A stretch of 64,000 bases of DNA from Methanobacteriota archaeon (GTDB lineage Archaea > Thermoplasmatota > Poseidoniia > Poseidoniales > Poseidoniaceae). A program made the translations under genes and the position numbers. The notes beneath the pieces are model-generated. The model was not told the DNA's origin and did not search any database. It saw only the letters and a list, made by a program, of their open reading frames with translations. Positions 1 through 48,154 of this stretch are shown here, one piece after another. Location: positions 1,302-65,301 of the forward strand of contig PBTH01000009.1 in assembly GCA_002726495.1 (NCBI GenBank), in the 5' to 3' direction. Numbering within the stretch: position 1 is the stretch's first letter; each line of letters opens with the position of its first letter.

Positions 1-3000
1 GTGCGGATGCATTCCCATCAGAAAGCACTCAATGGGCAGATGGTGATTATGATGGATACGGTGATAATTCAGCAGGTACAAATCCTGATGGCTGCCCTTC
101 TGCAGCTGGAAATTCAACCGCTGACCGGTTCGGATGCACGGATTCGGATGGCGACGGTTATTCAAATCCTGATTCAGGATGGACAACATCCAACGGTGCA
201 GATTCGTGCACCTCTACATCAGGAACCTCTGACCAAGACCGCAATGGATGTGTGGATACGGACGGAGATGGATATTCAGACCCCGATTCAGGTTGGACCG
301 TTTCAAACGGCGCTGACGCCTTCGCTTCCGACAGTTCACAATGGTCTGACACCGATGGTGATGGATTCGGTGATAACTCACCTCCCGCTACGAACGGAGA
401 CAATTGCCCCAATGATGTTGGAACCTCATCACAAGACCGCAATGGATGTGCGGATACGGATGGCGACGGATATTCCGACCCTGATTCATTATGGACGGTC
501 GCAGACGGTGCTGATTCCTTCGTTTCAGACGCTTCGCAATGGGCAGATAGTGATGGTGACGGATACGGGGACAATTCAACAGGAACAAATCCAGATGCCT
601 GTCCTTCCGTTGCAGGTACTTCGACCAACACAGGAAGTTTGGGTTGTCCTGACGCGGATGGAGACGGGTATGCTAACATTGACGACCCATTCCCCGCGGA
701 AGCAACGCAATGGGCAGACAGCGATAACGATGGCTTTGGTGACGAGATAACTGGATTCCAGGGAGACAATTGTCCTTCTACGGCTGGCTCATCAACCAGA
801 GACCGATTCGGTTGTCCTGACACCGATGGAGACGGTTCTTCGGATGCCGACTCTGGTTGGACAATTGCGAACGGAGCAGACCTTGACCCGAACGATTCAA
901 CCCAATGGGTCGACACAGATGGAGACGGATACGGGGACAACCCCACAGGAACAAACGGTGACGGTTGTCCCAATGATGTAGGGAATTCTACTCATGACAG
1001 ATTTGGATGTACTGATAGCGATGGAGACGGTTACTCAGACCCTGATGCGGGATGGACCATAGCAGACGGTGCTGACGCCTATGCAAGCGATGGAACTCGC
1101 TGGGGTGATGCTGATAACGACGGATACGACGACACCATCGACGATGATTGTCCCAATATCGCAGGAACTTCCGTCGAGGACAGGAAAGGATGTCCGGACC
1201 AAGACGGTGATGGATATTCCGACCCGGATTCTTCGTGGGGGGCGGCCGATGGTGCCGATGCCTTCATGGCTGAACCATCTCAATGGAACGATACCGACGG
1301 TGACGGCTACGGGGACAATATCGGAGGAAGCCTGCCAGATCATTGCCCCAATGAATTTGGAACATCATGGCAAAATGCAACCTACGGATGCATTGATTTT
1401 GACCAAGATGGTTGGGCCGATATTCAAGACAGTCATCCTAACGAACAAACACAGTGGGCTGATGTTGATGGTGACGGATACGGAGATAACCCCGGTGGTA
1501 TCTTCGCAGATGCTTGTGTGAACACGGCAGGAAATTCAACCCTCGGCAACCGATATGGGTGCCTTGATAACGACGGCGATGGATGGGACAACTCCCTCGA
1601 TGCTCTACCTGACCTTGCGACCCAATGGCTTGACCAAGATAATGACGGATACGGGGACAATGCGAGTGGACTTCAACCGGATGCTTGCCCTGGAGAGGCT
1701 GGGACCTCAACAATCGATCGTTACGGCTGTATAGACAGTGATAGCGATGGTGTCTCAAATCTTACCGACGCATTTCCTAATGAGCCAACGCAGTGGTCCG
1801 ATATCGATAATGATGGATTCGGGGACAACCCCAGTGGAGTTCAGGCCGACGCATGTCCAAATGTCACAGGGACCTCACTCATCGACCGAATCGGGTGCTT
1901 GGACAGTGACAGCGATGGCGTGTCAGACCCCACACCAGCGTTTGACAATACAAGTGCTTGGAACGTCAGTGACGGAGCTGATGCACTGCCTCTTGAAGTC
2001 ACACAAAGTATTGACACTGATGGTGATGGATACGGCGAGAACGCATCAGGACTGAATCCTGATGCATGTCCAACTACGGCAGGAACCTCGACGATTGACC
2101 GCTACGGTTGCGTGGACGGTGATGGTGATGGCGCATCTGATGCCAACGACCTTTTCCTGAGCGATGCAACGCAATGGTACGATGGTGACGGTGACGGTTA
2201 CGGTGATAATCCGGACGGAAACAACGCAGATGATTGTAACAGCACTGTGGGAACATCAACCATCGACCGATTCGGTTGTGTGGACACAGATAGCGATGGA
2301 ATCAGTGATGAAAACGATGTGTGGCCAAACGATGAGACGCAGTGGTACGATACCGACGGTGACGGCTACGGGAACGAAGCGAGTGGAACCAACGGAGATG
2401 CGTGCCCAATGGAGAACGGTACCTCAACGAAGGCTGGAAAACTCGGCTGCTTGGATACGGACGGTGACGGATGGGCTGATGTTGACGATTGGTTCCCTCT
2501 CCAACGAAGCCAATACTTTGACGGTGACAATGACGGATGGGGAGACAATGCGACACTTGGAGCATACAAACCCGACCACTGGCCAAATGACGCTCAACGG
2601 AACTCTGCTGAAGGGTCAATGACATGCACTCCAACAAAAATTTCAATCGATTTGGCAGCACAAACCTACATCGACTTCAGTTGTACTGTTAGCACAACCA
2701 TGACGACCTCATTTGCTGCAAGAGTTGAGTGGCAAGGAACCAACGATGTCATCGCTGATTCAACCGTCCAATACCTTACGTTTACACCAGATACTGGAAA
2801 CAGTCAGATTGTGACATTCACAGGAAATGTTCAGGACATTGGAACGCATCAGATTCTTCTGTCGGTTCGCGAACCAGGTGCGGAGAATCCAATGGATACT
2901 GTCACGGTTAAGATCACCACAGTTGACTCAAACATACCCGACACGGTAGCAACCGATGAAAACGCTGCATCGCTTTCCAAATTGATGGAGAACCCGCTGG

Positions 3001-3242
3001 CGCAAGCATCTGTTGGAATTTTGGTATTGTTCGTCCTCATGGGCGCACTTATTTTGAGAGGACGTGGTAAGAATGCGAGGTCAGAAGAACGTCGTCGAGC
3101 GGCAGCTGAAGAATTAATGGGCAATCGGGGAGTGGAAATAGTTCCCACCCCGCGATTGATTTCAGAACGTCAAAACCGCTCAGCACCACCCGTTCAAAGA
3201 GCGCGCAGTCGGTCAATGTTTGAAGAATACCGACGAAAGTGA
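1..3242 (+). CDS. Thrombospondin type-3 (Ca-binding DxDxDGxxD) repeat surface protein, with the 5' end off-window and a C-terminal TM anchor
   Basis: Frame 3 is open from base 3 (ADAFPSESTQWADGDYDGYGDN...), so the listed ORF 252..3242 only marks the first in-frame GTG. It has at least 14 units of D.DGDGYSDPDSGW...QW.D.DGDG.GDN...D.CP...G.S..DR.GC. A non-repeat domain, a hydrophobic anchor (ASVGILVLFVLMGALIL) and a basic tail follow. Confidence 0.8.
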   Translation, partial: ADAFPSESTQWADGDYDGYGDNSAGTNPDGCPSAAGNSTADRFGCTDSDGDGYSNPDSGWTTSNGADSCTSTSGTSDQDRNGCVDTDGDGYSDPDSGWTVSNGADAFASDSSQWSDTDGDGFGDNSPPATNGDNCPNDVGTSSQDRNGCADTDGDGYSDPDSLWTVADGADSFVSDASQWADSDGDGYGDNSTGTNPDACPSVAGTSTNTGSLGCPDADGDGYANIDDPFPAEATQWADSDNDGFGDEITGFQGDNCPSTAGSSTRDRFGCPDTDGDGSSDADSGWTIANGADLDPNDSTQWVDTDGDGYGDNPTGTNGDGCPNDVGNSTHDRFGCTDSDGDGYSDPDAGWTIADGADAYASDGTRWGDADNDGYDDTIDDDCPNIAGTSVEDRKGCPDQDGDGYSDPDSSWGAADGADAFMAEPSQWNDTDGDGYGDNIGGSLPDHCPNEFGTSWQNATYGCIDFDQDGWADIQDSHPNEQTQWADVDGDGYGDNPGGIFADACVNTAGNSTLGNRYGCLDNDGDGWDNSLDALPDLATQWLDQDNDGYGDNASGLQPDACPGEAGTSTIDRYGCIDSDSDGVSNLTDAFPNEPTQWSDIDNDGFGDNPSGVQADACPNVTGTSLIDRIGCLDSDSDGVSDPTPAFDNTSAWNVSDGADALPLEVTQSIDTDGDGYGENASGLNPDACPTTAGTSTIDRYGCVDGDGDGASDANDLFLSDATQWYDGDGDGYGDNPDGNNADDCNSTVGTSTIDRFGCVDTDSDGISDENDVWPNDETQWYDTDGDGYGNEASGTNGDACPMENGTSTKAGKLGCLDTDGDGWADVDDWFPLQRSQYFDGDNDGWGDNATLGAYKPDHWPNDAQRNSAEGSMTCTPTKISIDLAAQTYIDFSCTVSTTMTTSFAARVEWQGTNDVIADSTVQYLTFTPDTGNSQIVTFTGNVQDIGTHQILLSVREPGAENPMDTVTVKITTVDSNIPDTVATDENAASLSKLMENPLAQASVGILVLFVLMGALILRGRGKNARSEERRRAAAEELMGNRGVEIVPTPRLISERQNRSAPPVQRARSRSMFEEYRRK
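3..2600 (+). repeat. Tandem coding repeats (TSP3-like units of about 63-70 aa, roughly 190-210 nt)
   Basis: The CP...G.S...R.GC.D.DGDG motif recurs at least 14 times. The long shadow ORFs in the other frames and strand here come from this periodic composition. Confidence 0.8.
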
Positions 3243-3374: not shown

Positions 3375-3480
3375 CCTTCTAGCTCACATCCTGCGAACGC
3401 TCTGCTTCTTCCTCGCAACAATCAAAGGCTATACGCTACGAGATTAGGCCATACCCTAAACGGCTCAGTAGGTTTTCGCA

Positions 3481-5870: not shown

Positions 5871-6296
5871 ATGAGCGGCGAAGCTACAGCGAACGATGTC
5901 CGCTCCCTATGGAAACTCATCGGGGGGTCTGCATTCATGGCCTCAATGTGTTGCTTTCCCAGCGTAGTCCTCGTTTTCTTTGGACTGGCGAGCGTTTCAA
6001 CCGCAGCTGCTCTTTCCGACAACCTCTATTGGGGATACAACGGAATGGGATGGTTTCGACCGCTCCTTCTCATCGCATCGACCATGATGGTCGTTGTTGG
6101 CTTGGTCGTGTATTTCAGAAAAGAAGGAATCTGTTCACTCGATGAAGCAAAACGACAACGACAGAGGGTCATCAACACCAGTTTATTCGTAGGAACCTTC
6201 ACCGTAGCACTCTACATCTTATTCAATTACGTGATTCTTACCGAACTCGGCATTGCACTTGAACTCCCATGGGAGTCAAGCAGACTGTGGAACTGA
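5871..6296 (+). CDS. Small 3-TM membrane protein with a vicinal Cys-Cys motif (MerF/MerT-like?)
   Basis: MCCFPSVVLVFFGLASVS resembles the MerF CCFTPVLV helix-1 motif, but the second Cys pair is absent. Confidence 0.3.
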   Translation: MSGEATANDVRSLWKLIGGSAFMASMCCFPSVVLVFFGLASVSTAAALSDNLYWGYNGMGWFRPLLLIASTMMVVVGLVVYFRKEGICSLDEAKRQRQRVINTSLFVGTFTVALYILFNYVILTELGIALELPWESSRLWN

Positions 6297-6298: not shown

Positions 6299-7081
6299 TC
6301 ACACATTTCCCCTGTTTGTCTTACACCCTACGCCCCAATCAGGGTCGCTCTCCATTGCCGAACGAGTCGCTTCCAATAATCGGTCTTCCGCAGTAACCAA
6401 ATGCTCGGATTTCAAGCGGATTGCTAGGCTCAATTGGAAGTCACTTTCTGTCCAACTTACCAATTGAATTTTTGAATTTTCAATTGAAATATTTTGATTA
6501 TTTTGTCCAATTGAAACTTTAATTTTGCGAGGATTAAGATGCATTCCTTTTCGCATGGCTTTTTGCACTGCTTCCTTTGCGGTCCACAAGAACATGGAGG
6601 CGTTTGGTTGCTGACGGAGTTGCTCAAGTTCATCTCCAGTGGACATCATATCAAAGGCATTTGCTGCAAGGGAACGAGAGCTCGGCTCAGCATCGATACC
6701 CACATCCATACTGGAATCGGCAAGAGCAACGAACACATGACCTCCGCTGTGTGAGATTGAAATTGAGGGAAGCGGTAAATTCAGCCACATGCCCTGCAAG
6801 TAGGCGACTCGTGGAGCACGTTCTTGATTACGAAGGATATGGAGGACACTCAAATCTTCAATGCCCCACGATTTGAGGGCGTGCCCCAACAACCATCGTC
6901 CACTCATGTGCTCATCGTTTCGCTTCTGCGTCGCAAAAGTAGCCACTTCATCTGCATTCGCGAGTGGTACTTCACGAAGTTCAAAGGTGTGAACTGGCAT
7001 GCTATAGGCACGAACTCCCAGTGATTCAAAAGTCGGGTGGTTTAATTCCACAATCTGGCGTTCCATGCGCTCACCGATCAT
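6299..7081 (-). CDS. Sfp-type 4'-phosphopantetheinyl transferase (PfaE-like)
   Basis: It carries VGIDAEP and WTAKEAVQKA, matching the PPTase G(I/V)D and (F/W)xxKE(S/A)xxK motifs. Its ATG overlaps the megasynthase stop as ATGA (7078-7081). An alternative ATG lies at 7066. Confidence 0.75.
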   Translation of the reverse strand: MIGERMERQIVELNHPTFESLGVRAYSMPVHTFELREVPLANADEVATFATQKRNDEHMSGRWLLGHALKSWGIEDLSVLHILRNQERAPRVAYLQGMWLNLPLPSISISHSGGHVFVALADSSMDVGIDAEPSSRSLAANAFDMMSTGDELEQLRQQPNASMFLWTAKEAVQKAMRKGMHLNPRKIKVSIGQNNQNISIENSKIQLVSWTESDFQLSLAIRLKSEHLVTAEDRLLEATRSAMESDPDWGVGCKTNRGNV

Positions 7082-10000
7082 CGAACAAATTCAACACTGT
7101 GTTCGTCCGCCACGGGTGCCATCGCCTTCAACCGCAGCCCCTTCATGGCGAGCACTGGAGCATCATCATCGCCGACGATAACAACATCGTGAACGGTGAC
7201 TCCTTCATCATCCGATGAGGTTTGTATGCTACGAAGACGTAGACTCTCATCGCTTTCAGGAACTCGGAGCATTGTTGACCATTGAATCCCAACAGGCAGG
7301 CTACTGAAGCCCTTTGACTCCATAGCCACCAAGCCTGCGTTTTGGAAGCCTGCTTCAATCAGCATCGGCAAGGCTTCGAGCAACACCTGTTCCCCATTGC
7401 TCTCAATAGAAAATTGGTCGGTCTGCGGAAGTTGATGACGCATCAAAGCACGCCCATCAATACCTGGATGTTCATCGTCTCCAACACCTCTTAGCACACC
7501 TCCATGCGATTGGAATCGTGGGCCATGGAAGTAGCGCTGATAGATGAAATCGGGACGTTGAATCAATTCGCCTGATGGGGGTATGCCAATCTCTGGAAGC
7601 AGATTGACCTCGCGATCAAGGAATGGACAAAGGTCGTCGCATTTCTCTACCAAACGAACGAGAGCTGTGTGATGCTCACGCTCACCAAAGACTTCCCCTT
7701 TGGAATTTGCAAGGTCTGAAACAAGCGTGCATCGCACCCAGGTCAAATCACCATCTTTTCGCTCAATCTGAGACACCACACGTACAATCATTGGACCTTT
7801 GAGAAGTTTCACCGGTAGCCCGAAGGTAACCTCTTCATATCCCGCCAAGCATGTTGAGGGGCGCAAAAGGAGTGAATTTTGTGCAAACATTTCCAACGCC
7901 ATGACCCCAGGATGGTAAGGTACTCCGTCGATGGCGTGGTCTGTAAGGAACGGGTGGTCGTCAACTGAAAGGGTGCTTTGCGTGGTCATTGAGGCTCCAT
8001 CCTCAAGGTCGAGGACTTTGTCAATGAATGGGAATCGTGAGGGATCTGCAATTGTTGCAGCCATACTGGGAGGTAATTTCAACGGAGCCTCACGGAATGA
8101 ATCGAAACGATCCATCATACCGAGGGAACCGCATCCAAGTACCCTGCGCTTACCGCCTCGCAATGCCTCATCTACGAAGATATGGACGCCGTCCTCAACA
8201 GAAAGCGTCTCAATTCCTGCTGCCTCAAATACGGCTTCGATTGAACCACGCGTGGCCATGCCAACATCACGCCATCCGGTCCAACCAATGGCAACCGCAC
8301 GGCATGAAGAACTGGCTGTGAGACGAGCCATCTCCGCATCGAGAACTGAATTGGCTGCAGCATAATCCGTCTGACCGCCATTTCCAAACCGTCCCGCTAC
8401 GCTGGTAAAGCAAGAAGCAAACAGTGGATAGTCTCGTCCTGAAGCACGCACTGCACCTAATAGGGCCCTCCATCCATCAATTTTAACACGGACGACGTTG
8501 TCAAATATTTCATGCGATTTATCGCCAACGAGCTTTGAATCTTCAAGACCTGCTCCGTGAACGATACCGGTAATCTCTCTTTCGAGATTCTGGCCAAGGG
8601 ATTCAAGCGCTTCGTAGTCAGTTACATTGACAGAACAATACTCTGCAGTATTGCCGGTCTTGACGATGGTGTCCATCGTGATGAAAACATCCCTGCTACG
8701 AGTGTATTTCTGCCAGGCTTTGTTCCATTCGACCATGGTGACCTTTCCATCATCTGCTGCATCAACCAATCGCTGCCTTAGGGCATTCTTCTCTTCGGCA
8801 AGTTGAGATTCGTCCCATTCGATCCAATGTTCTGTTTCTTCAAGAAGTGCTGAACGACCGAGAAGAACAAAGTGGGCTCCTGCATTTTGGCTTGAAGTTG
8901 CCACTCCGATAACTGAAGCAGCAGTAACTCCGGAGCCGCCACCAGAAACGAGCCAGGTGTCTTCACTGGTAAGCGGCTGTGTTTCTTCAACAAGGTCTTC
9001 TGCAAAGGCTACGAGTGTCCAACGGCGGCCGTCTCGGTCCAAGCCAATTTCTACTTCTCCTCCAAGCGCAAACACATCATGTTCAATCCGTTTTGCGGCG
9101 TCTACCTCCTCAAAGAGAAGTTCTGGATGTAAATCAATGGCTCGGCAGCGCAAGTCTGGGCGTTCAAAGGCATAGGACTTGGTAACGCCTGATGCTGAGC
9201 ATTGGATTGAATTGAAACGTTCACCGATGTTTCCATGCCTCCCATCCATAGCGGTGACGGAGGCGATAATCGCTGGTTTTTCATTTGAAATATGATCATT
9301 CAATTCTTTCAAGAGAGCAAACCACCCATGACCGGCCAGAGCAATCTGTGATGATGGGACGGTGTCTTCCTCCCACTGTGCAGAAGCGATTTTCATCGGA
9401 GCCATGTGGACAAGAGCGCCAATCGTCGTGGCCCGTAGTTGTTCACTGATCCAAGCCACATGCTCAGGTTGTTCTGGGTCAGCCCGATAGACGGTTCGAC
9501 CGCCTTCGTTAAGGACAGATGGTTCTCGGATACTGCTCTCAAAACCAACACGAACAGCATGCAAGCCTCGCGCATCCATGCGCTTGCAAAATGCCTCTGC
9601 GATCCCCCACCCATCGTCGGTAACAACAACGGCCCCATTAATGGTAAGTGGCTCATCAGTTCCTTGACAATCTTCGACTTCAACTTGCCACCTACGAGTT
9701 CCCGAAGGAGTGAACGTATCGGTGGCCGATTCTACTGTGGATTCAACTGGAAGGGGTTCGGATGACGCAGGTGCCGCTGTGGCGCCTCCGGTCATTTTCA
9801 CGATATAGGCGGTGAAATGGTTGAGCGTTGGGTGGTCGGAAAGGACAAAGTCCTCATCCACTGGAAGTGAAAATTTCTCACGTATGTCCCCCATGATTTC
9901 GGCTTGCTTGACGGTATCAATTCCAAGTTCACCTTCCAAATCCTGGTCCATCTCGATGAAATCCGCTGGATAACCCGTATGTTCAACCACGACCTCAATG

Positions 10001-13000
10001 AGGACCGATTCAATATCTGGATTTGAGCCAGAAGATGGAGGCAATTCCACTGGAGGTGTCACGGCAGCTGGTGCTGGAGTTGGGGCACTTTCCTTGGGTG
10101 CTGAAGAGGGTACTGAAGGTGGGGCGCCACCCTGCATGGTTTGGATGTACCCCATCATGTGATTGAGTGTTGGATAATCAGACAAAACAAAATCTTCATC
10201 GATGGGCAGATCAAAACGCTCTCGGATATCAGCCATAATTTCAGCTTGCTTGACCGTGTCAATTCCAAGTTCACCTTCCAAATCTTGGTCCATTTCAATG
10301 AAATCTGCTGGGTACTTTGTGTGTTCAACTACGACTTCAACAACAATGTTTTGCATTGAAACATCATCAACAACCACTGGCGATGGAGCATCTTTTTGTT
10401 CGGTCTTTGAAACAGTCACTGGAGCCTCAAGTTGAGGTGTGGCCGGAGGTTGAGGTGCGGGTGGTGAACGTTCTGAACCGGTCATCTGTTGAATGTAGGA
10501 AATCATATGATTCAGAGTCGGATAATCCGAGAGGATGAAATCCTCGTCGACGGGAAGTGAGAATTTCTCACGGATATCAGCCATAATTTCAGCTTGTTTT
10601 ACCGTATCAATGCCCAATTCACCTTCCAAGTCCTGGTCAAGTTCAATGAAATCCGCTGGATAACCTGTATGAGTCACGACAACATCAATGACCGTTTGAA
10701 CCGTAGACTCGTCGCTTACTGCGAGAGGTGCTGACGGCATAACCGGTGCAGGTGATGGCTTAGGAGCAGCAACAGCAGGAGGAGTTTCAATGCGGGGCGG
10801 GGCGGTTTCTGGTTGGACCGATGCTTTGCCTTCCCACTCTTTTGTCGGCTCCCAATGTTCGCCTTGAACCCCGCCGTGAAGGTTGTCATCTCCATCGACA
10901 TAAGCCACGAGTTTATTTTGGAGGATTCGCATCACAACATCATCCGTTCCTGCGAGTTTTCTTGCCCAAGCAAGCAAGATTGCTCCATTGATTCGTTCAC
11001 CTTCAATGGGCCAACGACGAACCAAAGAGAGCGCAATTTGGGAGCCAAAACCAGCCGCAAATCTCAATCCATACTGAAGTCCCGGATAATCTCCACCAGT
11101 TGATAGATTCAAATCGCCCAATTCCGGGTCGTTTTCTTTGTGATTAGCAATTGGGGGAATACGCCCCGTCAGCATGCCGTAGAACATACTTGCATCTTCA
11201 ATCCCAACCGCCATTGGATGCCCAGTGAATCCTTTGGTATTCGCAATAACGAGGCTGTTGGTCGATTCTCCGAAAGTATCTCGAAGGGCTTTGACCTCAG
11301 ATTGTGCTGAACCCCCACGTGCAGGAGTGTATGTTTCATGTGAAAAGAATGCAGTTTTTGGAGCGAACTCATGCCGGTCAAGACCCCAACGTTGTTCCAT
11401 AGAACTGATGAAATCGTTCACGATTTCGCCAACGTGTTCAACATCAAGTCTCGTCCCGTGATATGCTGAATTTGCCGTGGTCGAACCAAGCAATTCGGCA
11501 ATGGGTTGTACGCCTCGTTGTTTTGCTTCGGAATGGCGCTCAACAACGAATGCAGCAGCCCCCATTCCCAGGATGAGGCCGTTTCTTCTGCGATCAAATG
11601 GTAGGGCTGTTTCCTCTACGATATTGTTGGTCGCAGCAGCCCCAGAGGCTGCAAACCCGCCAGCAATCCACTCCCAAAGGTCGTCACCCGTCACATCATC
11701 TCCACTGATGATGACAACACGGTCTACTCGGTCATTTTCCAACCAGTCTTCAGCAACTCCAAAGGCCGCTGTAGCGGATGCGCAAGCAAGGTTAATCGTC
11801 GTATTCGGGCCCCTGATGCCGGTGTATTGAGCGAATTGTGAATGGCCCATGTTGAGGGCTTGGAACAAGTAACGCCGGTCAAACCGACCCTCGCCATCGT
11901 CCCCGTTAGTTTTGGCATGCTTTGAGGCCATCTGCAATCCAGGGAAACAGGATGAAAACACAATACCCGTGCGTTCCCGTTGAATTTGAGGAACTTGCCA
12001 ATTCCGGATGAGTCGGAGTCCACCTTTGCCAACCTGTTCAACAGGAGTGAGTGGAATTCCAGCGTCACGGAGTGCAAGTAAACCTGCAGCGACAGACAAT
12101 TGTGTACTGATGTCCCAGGCGAGCACGACCTTGGGGTCAATACCAAATTCTTCTGAAAGGTCAAATGCACCTTTGAGGCCTGCGAGTTGGGGGATGTCTC
12201 CAAAGACCGTTGCTTGGTCCATGTTGACCGAACCGTCTCTTCCTTTGATGAGGCGGACAATGTTCTTGTCGAGAAGTCGTTGCTTGTATTCATCTGAAAC
12301 TTCTGAAATACACGTTTCTCCGCGCACTAATTTTTCAAAGGTATCCTCTGAAAAGACACGGTCCATACCAGGAAGTCCAAGGGAAATACCGGTGACGACA
12401 AAGGGGTCCGTATCTCTTGATGAACCCGAATGTGATTTGACTGCAGGCGCCGTTTGAACACGGTGCGATGCCTCTGATCTTTGAGGTGATGTCACGGTCG
12501 AGCGAGGTGCCCATGAAGATGGGGGCATCTTGACCCATCGTGCTAAATCGCCTGCGGTCAAGGATTGGCTGGGGTCATATTCGCCGTCAGTTTCAGCTTC
12601 ACTCGCCAGTGTTGAAATGACGTTTTGTATGGAAGATTCATTCAATCCAAGCCCTTCACGAAGCATAACATGCCCGTGGCAAAATGAAGCAGGGTAGTTG
12701 CTAAACGCTCCAATCCGGTCACCAACATAAGCCCGAATCGCCCGTTGTAGTGCGAATTCGTTGTCGACTACCGGGTGGTGAACTGGGGAAGAAGAAGGTA
12801 CGACAACAGCCCCTGCTCCACTCGGAAGTGGGCGTGCCCGAACGCGGAGCGATTCAACTTCTGAGGTTGACGGCCCTGTAGCCATTTGCACAGGGTGATG
12901 TGCCTCGATTGGGCCCGCTCTGAAGGCTTCACTTAGAATGTTTGAATTCGTATCTGGCCATTGAGGCGCTCGTCCTGCGAGGGCAAGGGCTCCAAGAGCG

Positions 13001-15870
13001 GTAAGGAATGTTGCAATACCTCCCTGTTTTGGATGGTTGGACATGATGGATAGGTGAGGGCGGTCTTCCAAAATTTGCATTGAAAACATGGTCAGGGCTC
13101 GTTTGGGGCCAACTTCAACGAAGACTCTGGCGCCAGCATCGTACATGGTTTCAATTTGTTTGGTCCATTCAACTGAAGAGGCCATTTGAGGAGCCAGTTG
13201 TTTCAAGACCTCCTGTTTAGAATCTCCACCCTTCATTGGATAAAATCTTCCATCAACGTTGGCTGTAATCGGAATACTGGGCCAACGAATCTCAAGGGAC
13301 TCAAGGAAACGTCGCAACGGTTCATTCGCAGGTGCGACAATACGGGAGTGGAATGCGTGAGAAGTAGCGAGTTCAACGCTGTTGAATCCTTTGGATTCAA
13401 AAGCGGCCATTGCTGAGCGAACCGGTGCAGTTTCACCGGCAATGACGGTCATTTTTGGTGAGTTTTTATTGGCTGCAATCACGTATCCTTCTGTTGCATC
13501 TAAGATCGCTTCCACTTCATCATATGGAGCACTTACACTTGCCATCAATCCTTTATCGTCGATTTCAACCGAGCCCATTTCCGTACCGCGAGCTGCTGCT
13601 GCACGCAACGCTCCATCCATGTCAAGTATACCCGATGACATCAATGCAGCATATTCACCAAGTGAGTGGCCTGCAACCATGTCAGGATGGTGGCCAAAGG
13701 CGTTCAAGGTCCGCTCAATAGCTAAATCGGCAGTGAGCATTGCTGGTTGTGTGTATTCTGTTTGTTTGAGTTTGTGCTCGGCTTCTTTGAGTTCATCCGA
13801 AGACAGCGAATCCCTCAATACAAAACCGGAAAGCGTCTCGCCATCAAGGACATCGACCATGGTGACATCTGCTTGCTTCCAAACAGATGCTGCGGGCGAG
13901 AATCGCTTGACAAGGTCGTTGGTCATTCCAACGTATTGGCTTCCTTGACCAGGATACATATGGGCTACTTTGGCCTCTTTTGGCAAGGCGGAGTCGGTAC
14001 TGATGAGAATGCCTTGCGATTGAAGAAAGCCCCATTTTTCAGGGTCGTCCATTGCCTTGAGTGCAAGCGTGACTCGCTTGTCAAATTCTGCCCAAGATGT
14101 TGCGACGAGAGCCATTCTTGCCTGATGGGATGAATCGTATTCCCCACTTGCTCCTTGGAGGGCCTCAGAAAGTCTCCTCCCTCGTGGGTCGGAATCAAAT
14201 CTTGGCTCTCCGAATTTCAACGCACCGAGCGAAGAAGACAACTCCTTCACCGATGAAGCGGATAAGAGCAGAAGGCCTCCTTCAATCGATTTGAGTTGCT
14301 CGTGAGTCATTGTTGGCTGTGCTGATGAATCAAATATTGAGGGGGCTTCTGCGGTTGAGGCCGAAGATTGTGCGTATGCGTTCCAGCGGCCTTCCCAATC
14401 CAAAGCAAGTGGGCGATGAACATCAGGCTCATATCCTTCCAAAGCAATGTGGAAATTCGTTCCTCCAAAGCCAAAAGCAGAGACACCGGCTCGCCGAGGG
14501 TTATCGCTTGGCCGAGGCCATTCTCGGGCTTCTGTGGGCACAAAAAATGGAATATTTGACCAATCAACAGTTGGATTTGGCGTCTCAAAATTGGCGCTCG
14601 GAGGAATGGTGCGGTGATGGAGAGCCATGACCGTTTTCATGATTCCAGCAATACCTGCAGCCGCCTTGAGGTGACCAATTTGAGATTTGATGGAGCCAAC
14701 GGCAACCTTGCCTGTACCCTCTATGCCAGTCCACAATCGAGACAGTGTTGAGAGTTCAGTCGCATCACCGACCTTGGTAGATGTTCCGTGAGCCTCAACC
14801 AATTCAACTGAAGAGGCTGGATATCCGGCTTGGCTGTACGCTCGGGCAATCGCCTGAATTTGCCCCCTTTGACTTGGAGCAGTAATTCCTTTTCCACGTC
14901 CATCGGACGAACCGCCAATACCCCGAATAACACTGTATATTTCATCTCCAGAATGGATGGCATCGTTCAATCGCTTGAGAACAAGCACACCGGCCCCCTC
15001 ACCCATTACAAATCCGTTTGCACGGGCATCAAACGGCGAAGAGTGCGATGGGGAAAGCGCTCCAATCGCTGAGAATTTCGCGAAGGTTGCAGGATCCATT
15101 GTCCGATCTGTAGCTCCCGCCAACATTACGTCAACTTGACGAGTTTGAAGAAGTCGGCACGCATCTAAAACAGCGGCCATGGAAGATGCACATGCAGCAT
15201 CCATTGCATGATTCGGCCCCTGCAAGTCCAAGAGATTGGCCACTCTTCCTGAAACGACGTTCGCAAGTTCACCCGGCATCGTATCCTCATCAACACGTGG
15301 CGTGCCCTCGTTGATCTCGTTCACAAAGGCATCAGCATTTGTCGACGGCATGCCGTGAGTCATGGCGGTTTGTTTGGTGTGTTCGGACCAAACACGAATG
15401 TTTGACAGATTCCTATTTTCTCCACCAAGGGCATTGGCAAAGACAACACCCGTTTTGGTGCGGTCGATATCATTGCTTTCACCATCGTATCCGGCATGTT
15501 CTATTGCATCGGCTGAAACGGTAACCGCCCACAACTGGCACGGGTCAATTTGTGGAAGTGTGCCGGGAGGTTGCCGCCAACGACGCCAATCAAACTCATC
15601 ACCCTTCACGAGAGCGCCAATTTTTGCATAAGTGAATCCCTCCGTATGCTCTCCAGGGCCGCCTTCTTTCCAAAAATGGCTCATTGGCCCAGGCCATCTG
15701 CCCTCAGGCAAAGGAGCAATGCTGACTTTCTTATCGATGATGTTCTGCCAAAAGTCTTCGATGCTTGGGGCATCTGGCATAAGAGCGCCAATCCCTACGA
15801 CCGCAATCGGTTCAAAGGGCCCTTGTTCAAGACCTTCGCAAGGTTTGCCGTCATCGGTAGTAATGGTCAT
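7078..15870 (-). CDS. Pfa/PKS-like type I megasynthase with domain order KS-AT-KS-ACPx3-KR-DH
   Basis: One uninterrupted ORF. The domain motifs are listed in the sub-features below. The ORF track starts at GTG 15879. I prefer ATG 15870, which sits 5 nt after a GGTGA Shine-Dalgarno-like element. Confidence 0.9.
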   Translation of the reverse strand: MTITTDDGKPCEGLEQGPFEPIAVVGIGALMPDAPSIEDFWQNIIDKKVSIAPLPEGRWPGPMSHFWKEGGPGEHTEGFTYAKIGALVKGDEFDWRRWRQPPGTLPQIDPCQLWAVTVSADAIEHAGYDGESNDIDRTKTGVVFANALGGENRNLSNIRVWSEHTKQTAMTHGMPSTNADAFVNEINEGTPRVDEDTMPGELANVVSGRVANLLDLQGPNHAMDAACASSMAAVLDACRLLQTRQVDVMLAGATDRTMDPATFAKFSAIGALSPSHSSPFDARANGFVMGEGAGVLVLKRLNDAIHSGDEIYSVIRGIGGSSDGRGKGITAPSQRGQIQAIARAYSQAGYPASSVELVEAHGTSTKVGDATELSTLSRLWTGIEGTGKVAVGSIKSQIGHLKAAAGIAGIMKTVMALHHRTIPPSANFETPNPTVDWSNIPFFVPTEAREWPRPSDNPRRAGVSAFGFGGTNFHIALEGYEPDVHRPLALDWEGRWNAYAQSSASTAEAPSIFDSSAQPTMTHEQLKSIEGGLLLLSASSVKELSSSLGALKFGEPRFDSDPRGRRLSEALQGASGEYDSSHQARMALVATSWAEFDKRVTLALKAMDDPEKWGFLQSQGILISTDSALPKEAKVAHMYPGQGSQYVGMTNDLVKRFSPAASVWKQADVTMVDVLDGETLSGFVLRDSLSSDELKEAEHKLKQTEYTQPAMLTADLAIERTLNAFGHHPDMVAGHSLGEYAALMSSGILDMDGALRAAAARGTEMGSVEIDDKGLMASVSAPYDEVEAILDATEGYVIAANKNSPKMTVIAGETAPVRSAMAAFESKGFNSVELATSHAFHSRIVAPANEPLRRFLESLEIRWPSIPITANVDGRFYPMKGGDSKQEVLKQLAPQMASSVEWTKQIETMYDAGARVFVEVGPKRALTMFSMQILEDRPHLSIMSNHPKQGGIATFLTALGALALAGRAPQWPDTNSNILSEAFRAGPIEAHHPVQMATGPSTSEVESLRVRARPLPSGAGAVVVPSSSPVHHPVVDNEFALQRAIRAYVGDRIGAFSNYPASFCHGHVMLREGLGLNESSIQNVISTLASEAETDGEYDPSQSLTAGDLARWVKMPPSSWAPRSTVTSPQRSEASHRVQTAPAVKSHSGSSRDTDPFVVTGISLGLPGMDRVFSEDTFEKLVRGETCISEVSDEYKQRLLDKNIVRLIKGRDGSVNMDQATVFGDIPQLAGLKGAFDLSEEFGIDPKVVLAWDISTQLSVAAGLLALRDAGIPLTPVEQVGKGGLRLIRNWQVPQIQRERTGIVFSSCFPGLQMASKHAKTNGDDGEGRFDRRYLFQALNMGHSQFAQYTGIRGPNTTINLACASATAAFGVAEDWLENDRVDRVVIISGDDVTGDDLWEWIAGGFAASGAAATNNIVEETALPFDRRRNGLILGMGAAAFVVERHSEAKQRGVQPIAELLGSTTANSAYHGTRLDVEHVGEIVNDFISSMEQRWGLDRHEFAPKTAFFSHETYTPARGGSAQSEVKALRDTFGESTNSLVIANTKGFTGHPMAVGIEDASMFYGMLTGRIPPIANHKENDPELGDLNLSTGGDYPGLQYGLRFAAGFGSQIALSLVRRWPIEGERINGAILLAWARKLAGTDDVVMRILQNKLVAYVDGDDNLHGGVQGEHWEPTKEWEGKASVQPETAPPRIETPPAVAAPKPSPAPVMPSAPLAVSDESTVQTVIDVVVTHTGYPADFIELDQDLEGELGIDTVKQAEIMADIREKFSLPVDEDFILSDYPTLNHMISYIQQMTGSERSPPAPQPPATPQLEAPVTVSKTEQKDAPSPVVVDDVSMQNIVVEVVVEHTKYPADFIEMDQDLEGELGIDTVKQAEIMADIRERFDLPIDEDFVLSDYPTLNHMMGYIQTMQGGAPPSVPSSAPKESAPTPAPAAVTPPVELPPSSGSNPDIESVLIEVVVEHTGYPADFIEMDQDLEGELGIDTVKQAEIMGDIREKFSLPVDEDFVLSDHPTLNHFTAYIVKMTGGATAAPASSEPLPVESTVESATDTFTPSGTRRWQVEVEDCQGTDEPLTINGAVVVTDDGWGIAEAFCKRMDARGLHAVRVGFESSIREPSVLNEGGRTVYRADPEQPEHVAWISEQLRATTIGALVHMAPMKIASAQWEEDTVPSSQIALAGHGWFALLKELNDHISNEKPAIIASVTAMDGRHGNIGERFNSIQCSASGVTKSYAFERPDLRCRAIDLHPELLFEEVDAAKRIEHDVFALGGEVEIGLDRDGRRWTLVAFAEDLVEETQPLTSEDTWLVSGGGSGVTAASVIGVATSSQNAGAHFVLLGRSALLEETEHWIEWDESQLAEEKNALRQRLVDAADDGKVTMVEWNKAWQKYTRSRDVFITMDTIVKTGNTAEYCSVNVTDYEALESLGQNLEREITGIVHGAGLEDSKLVGDKSHEIFDNVVRVKIDGWRALLGAVRASGRDYPLFASCFTSVAGRFGNGGQTDYAAANSVLDAEMARLTASSSCRAVAIGWTGWRDVGMATRGSIEAVFEAAGIETLSVEDGVHIFVDEALRGGKRRVLGCGSLGMMDRFDSFREAPLKLPPSMAATIADPSRFPFIDKVLDLEDGASMTTQSTLSVDDHPFLTDHAIDGVPYHPGVMALEMFAQNSLLLRPSTCLAGYEEVTFGLPVKLLKGPMIVRVVSQIERKDGDLTWVRCTLVSDLANSKGEVFGEREHHTALVRLVEKCDDLCPFLDREVNLLPEIGIPPSGELIQRPDFIYQRYFHGPRFQSHGGVLRGVGDDEHPGIDGRALMRHQLPQTDQFSIESNGEQVLLEALPMLIEAGFQNAGLVAMESKGFSSLPVGIQWSTMLRVPESDESLRLRSIQTSSDDEGVTVHDVVIVGDDDAPVLAMKGLRLKAMAPVADEHSVEFVR
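7081..8052 (-). other. PKS-type (PS-DH, double hot-dog) dehydratase domain
   Basis: HPFLTDHAIDGVPYHPG fits the HxxxGxxxxP motif (His codon 7936-7938). The second half contains YFHGPRFQ. Confidence 0.65.
8245..9672 (-). other. Ketoreductase domain (structural plus catalytic subdomains)
   Basis: It has the Rossmann motif TWLVSGGGSGVTA and the SDR catalytic region GNGGQTDYAAAN. Confidence 0.7.
9790..10716 (-). repeat. Three tandem Pfa-type carrier (ACP) domains at 10480-10716, 10132-10368 and 9790-10026, separated by Pro/Ala-rich linkers
   Basis: The block YPADFIE(L/M)DQDLEGELGIDTVKQAEIM.DIRE.F.LP.DEDF.LSD.PTLNH occurs three times, with periods of 348 and 342 nt. The expected Ser position is Thr in every copy (codons ACG at 10603-10605, ACG at 10255-10257, ACC at 9913-9915). 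Confidence 0.75.
11005..12405 (-). other. Ketosynthase domain 2 (internal, Cys-His-His retained, divergent HETYT motif)
   Basis: It carries VVTGISLGLPG, INLACASATAA (Cys codon 11782-11784), FFSHETYTPARGG and GFTGHPMAVG. Confidence 0.7.
13075..13962 (-). other. Acyltransferase domain (malonyl-type)
   Basis: It carries GQGSQYVGM, GHSLGEYAAL and SHAFHS. The HAFH motif is associated with malonyl-CoA specificity. Confidence 0.8.
14440..15810 (-). other. Ketosynthase domain 1 (Cys-His-His intact)
   Basis: It carries IAVVGIGALMPDA, MDAACASS (Cys codon 15190-15192), EAHGTSTKVGD and GHLKAAAG. Confidence 0.85.
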
Positions 15871-15875
15871 TTTAT

Positions 15876-15880
15876 TCACC
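15876..15880 (-). promoter_or_regulatory. Shine-Dalgarno-like GGTGA upstream of the megasynthase ATG
   Basis: The minus strand reads AAGGTGAATAAAATG. The element abuts the fabI stop codon (TAA, 15881-15883), which implies translational coupling. Confidence 0.4.
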
Positions 15881-16672
15881 TTAATTCATGATGCTTTCTG
15901 GCACCATCGTAATTGAGTAACCCGCATCAACATAGATGCATTGGCCAGTCACTCCAGAAGATAGAGGGCTTGAGAGCCATAGTGTAGCACCTGCAACGTC
16001 TTGTTGGCTTACATTGCGGCGCAATGGGGCATTTGCTTCAACGTGGTCAAGAATACGGTCAAATCCGGGAATTCCCCCCGCTGCAATGGTACGAATTGGC
16101 CCTGACGAAATAGCGTTGATCCGATGACCTTCCGGCCCCAAATGGCACGCCAACTCCCTCGTCCAGCATTCAAGCGCAGCTTTCGCCATGGACATAATTC
16201 CATAATTGGGAACGTATCGATTTGCTGCTGCATAGGTCAGTGTCACCGTAGACGAACCTGGATTCAAATAAGGAAGTGCATGCTTAAGGCAGCGTTGAAG
16301 GGAATTGGCGGAAATGGTCATGGCCGTGTTGATATCTTCACCTTCAACGAATAGAATTGGACGGTCAAAACAGGCTCTTGGTGCAAATCCGATAGCATGG
16401 ATAAGGATATCTGCCTTTTTGCCCGGATGGTCTTTTGCGAATGCATCAAAAAATTCCTGAGTCGTTGCATCTTCTGCAACATCCAGTGGATAGAATCCTC
16501 CAATGGATGGAAGTTGGTCTTTTAATTGAAAGATACGACTCATAAATCGCTTCTGGTACCCCAAATAAAGTGTCACTCCAGCAGCGGCAAGTTGTTGACA
16601 AATAGCCCAAGCGATGGAGTCTTCGCTAGCAACACCAAAGACAAACGCTGTTTTCCCTTCTAAACTTAGCAT
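15881..16672 (-). CDS. fabI: Enoyl-[acyl-carrier-protein] reductase, FabI type (SDR)
   Basis: It carries LEGKTAFVFGVASEDSIAWAI and the Y-x6-K motif YGIMSMAKAALE. The start is placed at the internal ATG 16672, because the family N-terminus is M..L.GK. The ORF track extends to 16735. Confidence 0.8.
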   Translation of the reverse strand: MLSLEGKTAFVFGVASEDSIAWAICQQLAAAGVTLYLGYQKRFMSRIFQLKDQLPSIGGFYPLDVAEDATTQEFFDAFAKDHPGKKADILIHAIGFAPRACFDRPILFVEGEDINTAMTISANSLQRCLKHALPYLNPGSSTVTLTYAAANRYVPNYGIMSMAKAALECWTRELACHLGPEGHRINAISSGPIRTIAAGGIPGFDRILDHVEANAPLRRNVSQQDVAGATLWLSSPLSSGVTGQCIYVDAGYSITMVPESIMN

Positions 16673-16792
16673 GAAAACACTCCGTGACGAACAGGTGTAG
16701 TGCGCTACACCAAGCCTTTGAGTGTTGCCTTTCAAAAAGGGGCTTAGAGCGACGGTTTTGCACCTTCTTGATTTAGCGGAGGAAGCGTAAAC

Positions 16793-19403: not shown

Positions 19404-20237
19404 TCATTCCTCCTCCGATTTACCGCTAGGGGTCACTGTTGATGAAATCTCCTCTGGTTCAGGAAGACGTTCAAGCGCTTCCATGACAAGCGGTCGTTGC
19501 GGCATGTGTGCAACAACAAGAAGAGTTGCGTCTTCGCCATGTCGTTCCCGAAGAGATGCCAGAGCGCCTCTGATTCTCTTTGCAAGCCGTACATCTCTCC
19601 TCAGATTCAATTCGGGTGTACTCAACCACTCTGCAAGTTCCCACCACGCCGACGCAAGGACACTTACGGAGGAAAGGTTGTTTGGTTGTCCTTTTGGAGG
19701 CTGCTGGGCTAAGAAGAGGTTTGATTTTACCGAGCGCTTCCATCGTTTTCCACTTCGTACCATTCCCAATAATTTCCTCCAATGGGACACGGCCTTGGCT
19801 TGCTCGGTGAGATAATCACTCCAGTCTTCATCATCAGCAAGAGGCTCAATGAAGAAAACTTCGCGTTCATGACGGACTGCGTTTCGTTGCAGACGACGTG
19901 GTTCGGGGTCAGGGAAACGACCGCCTTGAATGTCCTCTAACGACTCAATGCCTTCAAGATATTTTGCAAAAGCACCACCCGAAATAAGACCATGCGCCAT
20001 GTTTACTCCGTAGGATTCGGCTTCGTCTTTTTCTTCTTGGATCCAAAGGTCAACCACATCTGGAGAATCAAGAATTGCAAGGCCGTGCCAAACACCTCGC
20101 GGGCGCATGGCATTGGGAAAAACCACCGTCGGAAGCGTTCCGTGAATCACGACAGTGCCCCCATCGGGGTCAGTCCAGACCTCATCGGCCCAGGTGTGCT
20201 GGGATGACATGGATGGCCTCACTGATTGTTGAGCCAA
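19404..20237 (-). CDS. Hypothetical protein
   Basis: 277-aa ORF with a 1-nt gap to the TBP-like gene. It overlaps the 3' end of the giant upstream gene by 19 nt. I recognised no family. Confidence 0.5.
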   Translation of the reverse strand: MAQQSVRPSMSSQHTWADEVWTDPDGGTVVIHGTLPTVVFPNAMRPRGVWHGLAILDSPDVVDLWIQEEKDEAESYGVNMAHGLISGGAFAKYLEGIESLEDIQGGRFPDPEPRRLQRNAVRHEREVFFIEPLADDEDWSDYLTEQAKAVSHWRKLLGMVRSGKRWKRSVKSNLFLAQQPPKGQPNNLSSVSVLASAWWELAEWLSTPELNLRRDVRLAKRIRGALASLRERHGEDATLLVVAHMPQRPLVMEALERLPEPEEISSTVTPSGKSEEE

Positions 20238-31653: not shown

Positions 31654-31838
31654 GTGCGAACGGCGGCCGAAGTATCCTATGAGCAAAGCGGTCAAAACAA
31701 CTGGTGTTTGACGAAAATACAGGAATTCGGCATATCCCAAACCTCCATGAGGCCATTTTCAACGATCACATCAAGAAATAGAGATTGAGGTTGCACTACG
31801 GGAAGGAATATGTAGGGGGGGGATTATGGATAACTGCA

Positions 31839-37347: not shown

Positions 37348-38475
37348 TCATTTTTTTGCTTTTAGCAACGGTTTGTGACCGTTTTTCCCACGTACCGCAT
37401 CGAGGCAACCAAGAAGTATTCCATGCCATAGAGCGATGCTCCACAAGATGGTTAGGCGACGAACACCCATCATGGCTACAATTTTGCTGTTTTTTGTTGT
37501 GTTCATAACCGTCCGATTAACCACACCAAGTGGACCACGCCAAAGAATGAATTCGTGCATTATGAGCAAAACAAACGAACCAATCAACACCTTCGTTTCC
37601 CACCAATTCATGAGTTCGTCCATTTTATCTGGGTCTGCCTGAATCAATTCATACAAGAATGGAAGGCCTGAAACGAAGATGGCCAGCCATAAGGGGAAGA
37701 GAACCAGTACCATGGCTGAATTACCCAAGAAATCAAAACCTGGACCTTTGCGTTTTGATTTAGGATAATGCCGAACGATTCGCATGTGAGCCCGAGCATC
37801 TCTTCTTCTTTTGTCCAAGAATCGCTTTGTTCCCGTTTCAGGAACATGCCGTACCAATGCTTCGGGAGCGTATACGATGGTCCCTCCTGACTCGATCAAA
37901 CGCAAACTAACTTCCATATCTTCTGCATGATACCATTCGGGATCAAATCCACCCACACCGAGTAGAGACTGGCGATGAAACATGGAGCATGGGCCGTTTG
38001 CAAGGCTTGTTCGGCGTGGCCTTGAACGGTATTTGGAGGCAACATCTACAGAACGGAAACGACTTACGAGGTCATCTGCACGCTCAAACACCGTTCTACC
38101 GGTTACTGCTACAACATGCTCCTCATCGGAAACGGGTTGAGTTTCAGCGACAAGATTTGAAATCCAATCTTGCTCCGGACAGACATCGATGTCAGTAATC
38201 GCAACCCATTCACCATTGGCTGCCTCAAGCGCCCATTGGCGCCCTGCAGCCAACCCAAGCGGAGGTTGATGATGAACACGAACAGGTGGGCCATTGACAC
38301 CTTCGGGGTCATTCCATGCATCAAGTACATCCTCCGCATTATCGGTTGAGCCGTCATTGACAACAATAATTTCCAGCGAAGGATATGTTTGCTCGGTGAG
38401 AGCGGTTAAACAACCGTCAATCCACGATGAGCCGTTTCGAACACAAACGGTGATGGATACGAGAAACGGTTCCAT
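37348..38475 (-). CDS. Family 2 glycosyltransferase with a C-terminal membrane domain
   Basis: It carries VSITVCVRNGSSWIDGCLTALTEQTYPSLEIIVVNDGSTD and C-terminal TM helices. Its start overlaps the upstream stop by 1 nt (TAATG). Confidence 0.7.
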   Translation of the reverse strand: MEPFLVSITVCVRNGSSWIDGCLTALTEQTYPSLEIIVVNDGSTDNAEDVLDAWNDPEGVNGPPVRVHHQPPLGLAAGRQWALEAANGEWVAITDIDVCPEQDWISNLVAETQPVSDEEHVVAVTGRTVFERADDLVSRFRSVDVASKYRSRPRRTSLANGPCSMFHRQSLLGVGGFDPEWYHAEDMEVSLRLIESGGTIVYAPEALVRHVPETGTKRFLDKRRRDARAHMRIVRHYPKSKRKGPGFDFLGNSAMVLVLFPLWLAIFVSGLPFLYELIQADPDKMDELMNWWETKVLIGSFVLLIMHEFILWRGPLGVVNRTVMNTTKNSKIVAMMGVRRLTILWSIALWHGILLGCLDAVRGKNGHKPLLKAKK

Positions 38476-48141: not shown

Positions 48142-48154
48142 AGAGGAACCACCA

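Follow-up and report, generated by a model that had tools for sequence, protein, structure and literature searches.

The stretch of DNA analysed here (64,000 nucleotides of contig PBTH01000009.1, from an archaeon of the Poseidoniaceae; hereafter the window) carries on its minus strand three tightly packed genes that appear to encode an acyl-chain synthase. The first, fabI (15881..16672; PF13561), specifies a FabI-type enoyl-ACP reductase (ACP, acyl carrier protein) that we propose to be a trans-acting enoyl reductase (ER). The second (7078..15870) encodes a PfaA-like megasynthase with two ketosynthases (KS), an acyltransferase (AT), three carrier domains, a ketoreductase (KR) and a dehydratase (DH), arranged as KS1-AT-KS2-ACP3-KR-DH in what has been called the 'Type R' architecture, and the third (6299..7081; PF01648) an Sfp-type 4'-phosphopantetheinyl transferase (PPTase). 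The full open reading frames extend over 15881..16735, 7078..15879 and 6299..7081, respectively, and the ATG starts used by public gene calls (16672 for fabI, 15870 for the megasynthase) yield proteins of 263, 2930 and 260 residues. On the minus strand the TAA stop codon of fabI (15883-15881) is followed by gGTGaataaaATG: the GTG of the megasynthase frame lies 1 nt and its ATG (15870) 10 nt past this stop, which a Shine-Dalgarno-like GGTGA element abuts, while the megasynthase stop and the PPTase start share the four nucleotides ATGA. An earlier note on this DNA had described the packing and both junctions, and the reading frames and junction sequences bear it out. It had also called the flanks archaeal and the cluster devoid of a thioesterase (TE), an acyltransferase release domain or PfaB/C/D-like genes. 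Both statements hold: the flanking genes match CarS (CDP-archaeol synthase, 8e-30), TBP (2e-12) and Cdc6/Orc1 (2e-25), and neither PfaB/C/D-like genes nor a thioesterase nor a FabA-like dehydratase occur among the roughly 45 window reading frames scanned. Likewise, no free ACP, FabH, FabG or FabZ is encoded in the 64-kb window.

The three-gene block is a stable feature of its lineage. We scanned one genome per GTDB species and matched 225 species; the locus counts given here cover the best 80, and 78 of these bear the label of Poseidoniales or of unclassified archaea. About 75 of the 80 loci contain the fabI-megasynthase-PPTase block, the rest being contigs cut at an end, and nearly all loci that are long enough keep the wider order p1950-p277-TBP-TatD-anchor protein-fabI-megasynthase-PPTase. 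FabI is the most conserved gene of the block (81-99% identity across Poseidoniales loci); identity is lower for the megasynthase (64-90%) and lowest for the PPTase (39-67%). The megasynthase has over 100 cluster representatives at 69-90% identity, which carry the names Poseidonia, Poseidoniaceae or Poseidoniales and lie on contigs reaching 2 Mb, and the closest named genomes are those of Candidatus Poseidonia; a homologue with 58% identity on a 3.0-Mb contig shows the same TatD-fabI-megasynthase-PPTase order. Moreover, the identical PPTase protein is encoded by 16 contigs that stem from independent assemblies and more than one assembler (SPAdes, MEGAHIT, Tara, JGI, Logan), and each of them shows the junction from the PPTase gene through the genes for a 141-residue and a 545-570-residue protein to CarS and an S8 peptidase. 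The synteny in related genomes that the earlier note had proposed to look for is thus kept, and the compositional break at the cluster borders that it had also raised is not seen: GC and GC3 are uniform across the borders, and in tetranucleotide usage the cluster correlates with the remainder of the window at 0.936, equal-sized segments giving 0.895-0.962. Given the conserved synteny and the uniform composition, the acquisition would be old and the cluster vertically inherited. It appears that the synthase was acquired once by an ancestor of the lineage and then passed on vertically, with FabI recruited into the operon.

The domain content of the megasynthase is that of a complete elongation and reduction machinery except for the ER, which lies outside the polypeptide. 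Pfam detects PF00109 (in two stretches), PF02801, PF16197, PF00698, PF00550 three times, PF08659, PF21089 and PF14765. These are the families that the earlier note had predicted, except that PF02801 occurs once instead of twice; the second KS is nevertheless full length. Conservation of the catalytic residues was assessed in 21 orthologues aligned with 68 full-length representatives of the wider family (89 sequences). The PKS-type (polyketide synthase-type) KS1 (residues 23-432; 14575..15804, minus strand, as are all domains that follow; PF00109, PF02801) has C227, H361 and H400, which are invariant in the orthologues and have a single exception among the representatives, gapped at that place; a KS-AT linker domain (PF16197) directly follows at residues 434-496. 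The AT (residues 641-970; 12961..13950; PF00698 2e-36, TIGR00128 fabD 4.5e-56) is of the malonyl type, with S736 in GHSLG and the malonyl signature HAFH at 838-841, and both S736 and H841 are invariant. KS2 (about residues 1165-1650; 10921..12378) is FabF-like, its best PDB matches being FabF (E 3e-24). We considered and rejected a role of KS2 as a chain-length factor (CLF), since its C1363, H1511, K1546 and H1551 are invariant in 89 of 89 aligned sequences; as judged by these residues, KS2 is a catalytically competent ketosynthase.

Downstream of the three tandem carriers (9763..10707; PF00550, 5e-24), the KR (about residues 2150-2560 with the catalytic part at 2300-2540; 8191..9423; PF08659 1.5e-20) conserves GGGSG, S2490, Y2503 and N2507, the last in 64 of the 68 representatives, and an LED motif at the 'LDD' position suggests that it is of the B type. 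The polypeptide ends with a PKS-type double-hotdog DH (residues 2617-2924; 7099..8022; PF21089 4.5e-7, PF14765 4.6e-4), whose PF14765 match is weak (20.2 bits against a cut-off of 23.7). Its motifs are nonetheless conserved, namely HxxxGxxxxP with H2645 and E2839-xxx-Q2843, with looser positions among the 68 representatives at the non-catalytic G2649 (51) and P2654 (55) and at E2839, which is Glu in 54 and Asp in 9. All told, the catalytic residues of KS1, AT, KS2, KR and DH are invariant in the 21 orthologues and present in 66-68 of the 68 representatives, the exceptions being alignment gaps. Neither Pfam nor motif searches detect a TE, a malonyl/palmitoyl transferase (MPT) or a reductase or AT release domain in the megasynthase, and since the polypeptide ends at the DH it lacks a release domain altogether.

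The ER activity missing from the polypeptide could be provided by the product of the first gene. FabI covers 236 of 236 positions of PF13561 (1e-68), matches Thermus FabI (1ULU) over its full length (E 3e-56) and has the Y-x6-K motif as YGIMSMAK. It would reduce trans-2-enoyl thioesters on the megasynthase carriers. The PPTase scores 42 bits against a cut-off of 25 (PF01648 1e-10), and its ISHSG, GIDAE and WTAKEAVQK stretches align with H90, D107/E109 and E151/K155 of Sfp. The set of activities listed by the earlier note, comprising KS, malonyl-type AT, carriers, KR, DH, a trans ER and the PPTase, is therefore borne out by Pfam and motifs.

Which family does this megasynthase belong to? When region 1001-1700 was used as query against a representative library, 533 representatives were retrieved at E<1e-30, mostly of 2,000-4,000 residues and with the KS2 homologue in the same relative position; domain mapping of 150 representatives clustered at 50% identity revealed KS1-AT-KS2-ACP(1-6)-KR-DH as the dominant architecture. 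This corresponds to the Type R secondary lipid synthases, defined by one pfaA homologue with the order KS-MAT-CLF-ACP(3-6)-KR (MAT denoting the malonyl-type AT) and a downstream PPTase gene (Shulse & Allen 2011, PMC3098273). They were reported from Acidobacteria, Elusimicrobia and Chloroflexi (Koribacter, Solibacter, Elusimicrobium, Roseiflexus), with acetyl-CoA carboxylase (ACC) genes often or sometimes linked and no product assigned (PMC3098273). The Poseidoniales synthase shares with Type R both architectural hallmarks, namely the series KS, MAT, second KS-like domain, tandem ACPs and KR, and the PPTase gene directly downstream, and neither has pfaB/C/D partners. On architecture, we place the operon in the Type R family. 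The type of cluster, of which the earlier note could not tell whether it had been described, thus has a published name, although no product has been assigned to it. What differs from published Type R systems is the archaeal host, the captured FabI gene joined to the operon, a second KS that keeps its Cys-His-His triad where the corresponding domain was named 'CLF', and carriers with threonine, a feature absent from the text of PMC3098273. A PKS-type DH after the KR further distinguishes the Poseidoniales enzyme.

Members of the family are found in bacteria and archaea. An Elusimicrobiota homologue (P0186) has the same architecture, a KS1 that is 49% identical and the gene order megasynthase-PPTase-carboxyltransferase, and other relatives come from Polyangiaceae and from a bacterium with sigma-54 and Tad genes. 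Two members with a C-terminally fused PPTase and Thr-type carriers lie on archaeal metagenome-assembled genomes (MAGs). One is a Thermoplasmatota MAG (L090, CAYIPJ010000002.1, 10001-19168), in which the megasynthase is followed by BioY, biotin carboxylase and biotin carboxyl carrier protein (BCCP); the other is a Heimdallarchaeota MAG (L093, WJIK01000017.1, 1-8605), flanked by Pcc1 and S15P/S13e. Across these two loci the archaeal context genes are Pcc1, S15P/S13e, TrmB and HTH_10, and the view of the earlier note that such synthases are bacterial or protist systems is therefore too narrow. In a rough neighbour-joining tree, which is no more than indicative, the Poseidoniales sequences form one clade with the homologue from the 3.0-Mb contig as sister, the next relatives include bacterial ones, and the other two archaeal members are placed elsewhere, which suggests several independent transfers into archaea. 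The bacterial near relatives and the intact conserved domains support the proposal, already made in the earlier note, that the archaeon acquired a type I fatty-acid synthase (FAS) or PKS horizontally. In this family an acyl-CoA dehydrogenase gene lies directly upstream of one bacterial member (L091, 6181-7836), and another, on the opposite strand, three genes upstream of fabI in a distant Poseidoniales-type locus (L089, 5197-6426). Such dehydrogenases may be alternative or additional redox partners in the family.

Comparison with better-studied systems helps to delimit what such an enzyme could make. The Pfa synthases of marine Gammaproteobacteria, which make polyunsaturated fatty acids (PUFA), have in common with it the order KS-MAT-tandem ACP-KR-DH, an Sfp-type PPTase and iterative use of the domains. 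However, the Poseidoniales synthase has an extra KS between AT and ACPs, its ER is FabI of the short-chain dehydrogenase/reductase type rather than the FMN-type PfaD, its ACP motif reads LGIDT rather than LGIDS, and no PfaB or PfaC FabA-like DH is found in the window reading frames scanned or in the conserved neighbourhood. Because of these differences, no cis double bonds would be expected in the product. Enediyne PKSs (PKSE) and the alpha subunit of fungal FAS show, in a comparison of architecture only, the same order KS-AT-carrier-KR-DH and a dedicated C-terminal PPTase. A PKSE, by contrast, contains a single carrier domain, lacks both a second KS and an ER partner, and produces a polyene. 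With bacterial type II FAS the similarity is at the level of single enzymes, as FabI is alike from end to end, KS2 is most like FabF and the AT most like FabD; the difference is that KS2 and AT are domains of one polypeptide in Poseidoniales. Finally, the integrated type I FAS of animals, fungi and corynebacteria differ in that the Poseidoniales polypeptide has no internal ER, TE or MPT.

The three carriers deserve particular attention. The earlier note correctly counted three (PF00550 three times) and overlooked that each has a threonine in place of the serine to which the prosthetic group is usually attached. The sequence ELGIDTVKQAEIM occurs in all three domains, with the motif ELGIDTVK three times, placing the threonines at Thr1756 (10603-10605, ACG), Thr1872 (10255-10257, ACG) and Thr1986 (9913-9915, ACC). 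They align with the phosphopantetheinylated Ser of PigH and of the spinach and Streptomyces ACPs; the usual carrier signature, Ser in (D/E)xGxDS, is thus lacking while the fold and the rest of the motif are conserved. This is no peculiarity of one genome. Of the 377 motifs collected from 120 Poseidoniales orthologues, 373 have threonine at the attachment position and the remaining four have Gly, being chance matches to the pattern; threonine also occupies it in 335 of 359 motifs from the 150 wider-family representatives, in which Ser occurs 16 times (for example in P0122 and P0166). Since only Ser interchanges with Thr within the family, the simplest reading is that the threonine is functional and serves as the acceptor, and on this pattern the conserved Thr is most likely the phosphopantetheine attachment site. 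Throughout the family the synthase is accompanied by a PPTase of its own. The PPTase gene lies downstream of the megasynthase gene in 75 of 80 loci and directly downstream in the bacterial family loci inspected as well, while 43 of the 150 family representatives, including the Heimdallarchaeota and second Thermoplasmatota members, have the PPTase domain fused C-terminally. Compared with the motifs given for Type R PPTases, ISISH fits hShxH (P1b'), and no clear match to x(G/D)xP (P1a) is seen, the corresponding stretch reading QERAP.

We think it probable, though not assured, that the three genes are organised as a single operon and encode an iterative, fully reducing type I synthase of the fatty-acid/polyketide type that makes a saturated long acyl chain in Poseidonia or a close relative (Marine Group II, MGII; Poseidoniaceae). 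In this scheme the PPTase would convert the three tandem carriers to the holo form, most likely on the conserved threonines, and the malonyl-specific AT would load malonyl units from malonyl-CoA. Chain extension would fall to the PKS-type KS1 and the FabF-like KS2, which, by analogy with the KSs of PUFA synthases, probably share the task, either according to chain length or with one priming the chain and the other elongating it. The KR would reduce the beta-keto group, the PKS-type DH would yield a trans-2-enoyl intermediate, and the separately encoded FabI would reduce the latter in trans. A saturated product is expected because there is no FabA-type dehydratase/isomerase, and the tandem arrangement of the carriers suggests high flux. 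The straight acyl chain would then be handed from the carriers to an unlinked acyltransferase or hydrolase.

Several observations weigh against this proposal. FabI scores 225 and hence below the NCBIfam FabI equivalog cut-off of 391 (PRK07370), and no fabI was found within 8-10 kb of four other family members inspected, indicating that full reduction is not a family trait and that FabI could serve another pathway. Similarly, the best NCBIfam match of the megasynthase, TIGR02813 PfaA in two stretches, remains below its cut-off (871 against 1010.1). We know of no precedent for threonine at the prosthetic-group site, and its presence could mean an unusual modification or an altered carrier chemistry. 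Furthermore, no release enzyme (TE, PfaB-type AT or reductase) is encoded in or next to the operon, and a neighbouring 545-570-residue protein that we considered as a release thioesterase has the fold of a cutinase or lipase, not of a thioesterase.

This neighbour (window 4121/4196-5833, plus strand) is found in Poseidoniales only, and its gene runs in the direction of carS, the end of which it overlaps. The protein combines a helical membrane region at its N-terminus with an alpha/beta hydrolase domain in which GGHSLG, Asp419/420 and His462 are invariant. Its AlphaFold model (pLDDT 82) matches cutinase, PETase and the Streptomyces exfoliatus lipase (E ~2e-8, TM ~0.6-0.7, normalised to the target), and by this model it is possibly a lipid esterase or acyltransferase. 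Between it and the PPTase gene lies the gene for a 141-residue membrane protein (5871-6296, plus strand) with a CC motif in its first helix (MASMCCFPSV). It adjoins the PPTase gene in 68 of 80 loci, usually convergently, and in six divergent loci runs in the same direction directly after it. We rejected this small membrane protein as a hotdog thioesterase, as it has nothing better than a faint match to MerT.

Is the block transcribed on its own? The earlier note took it for the tail of a ~20-kb co-directional gene array, a view that now seems improbable. A gap of 120 nt separates fabI from the upstream gene and contains the 16-nt motif GGCAACACTCAAAGGC (16714-16729, minus strand), 42-57 nt upstream of the fabI ATG. 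The motif shows invariant and near-invariant columns when 56 loci are aligned, and a GGAG/GGTG ribosome-binding element follows it. It is the best match in the window to its own position weight matrix (PWM; 24.9 bits). We considered a structured RNA leader or riboswitch upstream of fabI and discarded it, as RNAalifold predicts no pairs and Rfam gives no match in this region, and a general promoter element can likewise be dismissed because the motif is not found upstream of the other ~42 window genes. It is therefore a candidate for the operon's own promoter or operator, and with such an element in the 120-nt gap the three genes would constitute a separate transcription unit. A site matching this motif at 14 of 16 positions, CGCAACAATCAAAGGC (3414-3429, plus strand), lies upstream of carS (ATG 3481), correctly oriented and similarly spaced from the start codon. 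It scores 19.3 bits, whereas 20 shuffles reach 16.8 at most, and ranks second among the PWM matches in the window. In other loci related, weaker motifs (CAAnCATSAAAGGCT) precede carS, two of 26 reaching at least 15 bits. The shared motif may hint, if weakly, at co-regulation of the ether-lipid and acyl-chain operons.

It is possible, though on balance doubtful, that the operon serves a specialised secondary lipid instead. The synthase would then make a chain of great length, or one reduced only in part (a hydroxy, keto or polyene chain), for a glycolipid, an alkylresorcinol-type phenolic lipid or a hydrocarbon, which could be passed from the carriers to an unlinked tailoring enzyme, much as ArsA/ArsD pass theirs to type III PKSs in Azotobacter. 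Indeed, the family is grouped with secondary lipid synthases, of which the known ones build the tails of heterocyst glycolipids or phenolic lipids (PMC3098273), and a since-retracted survey of biosynthetic gene clusters listed T1PKS, HglE-KS and resorcinol clusters in Poseidoniaceae. The lack of a thioesterase and the tandem ACPs, which are typical of such systems, and the lack of a linked ER in the other family members inspected point the same way. However, in Poseidoniales-type loci, and only there when compared with those four members, fabI directly precedes the synthase, and that the most conserved gene of the block is joined to the operon argues for full reduction at most cycles. Moreover, no glycosyltransferase, type III PKS, OleABCD or reductase gene is conserved next to the operon, and a locus kept vertically almost throughout the family is more what one would expect of a core function.

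An appealing extension of the fatty-acid synthase reading, which we put forward tentatively and regard as unlikely in its entirety, combines the unusual carriers with a role in the membrane. Perhaps the Type R family at large uses O-phosphopantetheinyl-threonine carriers together with a co-evolved PPTase, orthogonal to the ordinary ACP/PPTase pairs, and perhaps in Poseidoniales, with the captured FabI, it constitutes a de novo fatty-acid synthase that feeds membrane lipids alongside isoprenoid ethers, giving a 'mixed membrane'. If confirmed and indeed unreported, a carrier threonine that is paired family-wide with its own PPTase would be new enzymology, and the pair could serve as an orthogonal tagging or engineering system. 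The literature searched contains nothing relevant on the LGIDT motif or on threonine phosphopantetheinylation, which may be known elsewhere.

Two further explanations are highly improbable. One is that the synthase, like the mitochondrial FAS, supplies an octanoyl-carrier for lipoate or another short acyl cofactor precursor. Archaea are not known to possess FAS II, and MGII, as aerobic heterotrophs, would depend on lipoylated dehydrogenase complexes, which would speak for such a role. However, three tandem carriers and two KSs point to high-flux, long-chain synthesis, neither lipB nor lipA is linked in the window, and a 9-kb gene would be costly for a cofactor. The other, to which we give just as little credence, is that the carriers are dead owing to the replacement of Ser by Thr, the megasynthase being a relic or working on CoA-bound substrates and the PPTase serving something else. 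An exchange of Ser for Thr at the attachment site is generally held to be disabling in the ACPs studied, and the PF00550 matches are weak. Against this, the threonine is conserved in hundreds of motifs from bacteria and archaea and interchanges only with Ser, carrier copy number ranges over 1-6, the repeats being homogenised, a PPTase accompanies the synthase in the family as a neighbour or as a fused domain, and all catalytic domains are under purifying selection. The chimera alternative of the earlier note, in which misassembly or a binning error would have fused bacterial with archaeal DNA, is refuted and has a negligible probability: two of the 80 related loci carry bacterial MAG labels, but both show the archaeal synteny found across ~80 species, the junctions recur on 16 contigs from independent assemblies, orthologues are found on contigs as long as 2 Mb and the composition is uniform. 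In one of these two loci (L014, NZEQ01000014.1, 'Verrucomicrobiales') the contig starts at fabI and continues with the megasynthase, the PPTase, the 141- and 570-residue proteins, CarS and the S8 peptidase, while the other (L059, CAXRAI010000082.1, 'Salinimicrobium sp.') holds the full block including TBP and TatD. Because of this Poseidoniales synteny, both are probably misbinned archaeal contigs.

The megasynthase gene is present in public databases under automatic names; the protein is 100% identical to NCBI 'hypothetical protein CMA65_01270 [Euryarchaeota archaeon]'. We found no description of it in the MGII literature searched (including Rinke 2019, Tully 2019 and Deschamps 2014), and Villanueva 2017 may list such genes. 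The principal genomic studies of MGII are confined, on this subject, to fatty-acid degradation and the glycerol-3-phosphate (G3P) backbone, MGII having a G3P dehydrogenase and no glycerol-1-phosphate dehydrogenase (Rinke 2019, PMC6461757), while one paper mentions horizontally transferred 'fatty acid biosynthesis' genes in general terms only. Bacterial-like fatty-acid genes in MGII are attributed to Villanueva 2017 in a passage of PMC7852524, and the retracted survey gives counts of T1PKS and HglE-KS clusters in Poseidoniaceae without detail. The operon bears on two questions of the 'lipid divide', namely whether any archaeon has a de novo, carrier protein-based synthesis of fatty acids and whether MGII membranes mix bacterial and archaeal features, and it narrows them to three genes of ~10.4 kb that can be expressed and assayed. 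MGII have not been cultured and count among the most abundant archaea of the plankton, so that what lipids they make also matters for the interpretation of marine lipid biomarkers.

A few other genes of the window merit mention. Upstream of the block, a 1950-residue protein without a Pfam match (20219-26071, minus strand) is kept in 50 loci, and at the other side the window edge cuts an S8 peptidase of 1858 residues, the end of which is encoded at 252-3242 (plus strand). A stand-alone biotin carboxylase (30313-31740, minus strand; PF02786, PF00289, PF02785), with no BCCP or carboxyltransferase gene adjacent, is possibly part of the malonyl-CoA supply. At 38475-39494 (minus strand) a 339-residue protein combines a cytidylyltransferase-like domain with DUF359, which we take to be the archaeal dephospho-CoA kinase (DPCK) family, so that the protein would presumably be a fused phosphopantetheine adenylyltransferase (PPAT)/DPCK for the last two steps of CoA synthesis. 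Finally, a loose group of genes of the beta-oxidation type at 44033-55497 encodes two enoyl-CoA hydratases, a 3-hydroxyacyl-CoA dehydrogenase and an aldehyde dehydrogenase, placing genes for the synthesis and for the degradation of acyl chains within the same 64 kb.

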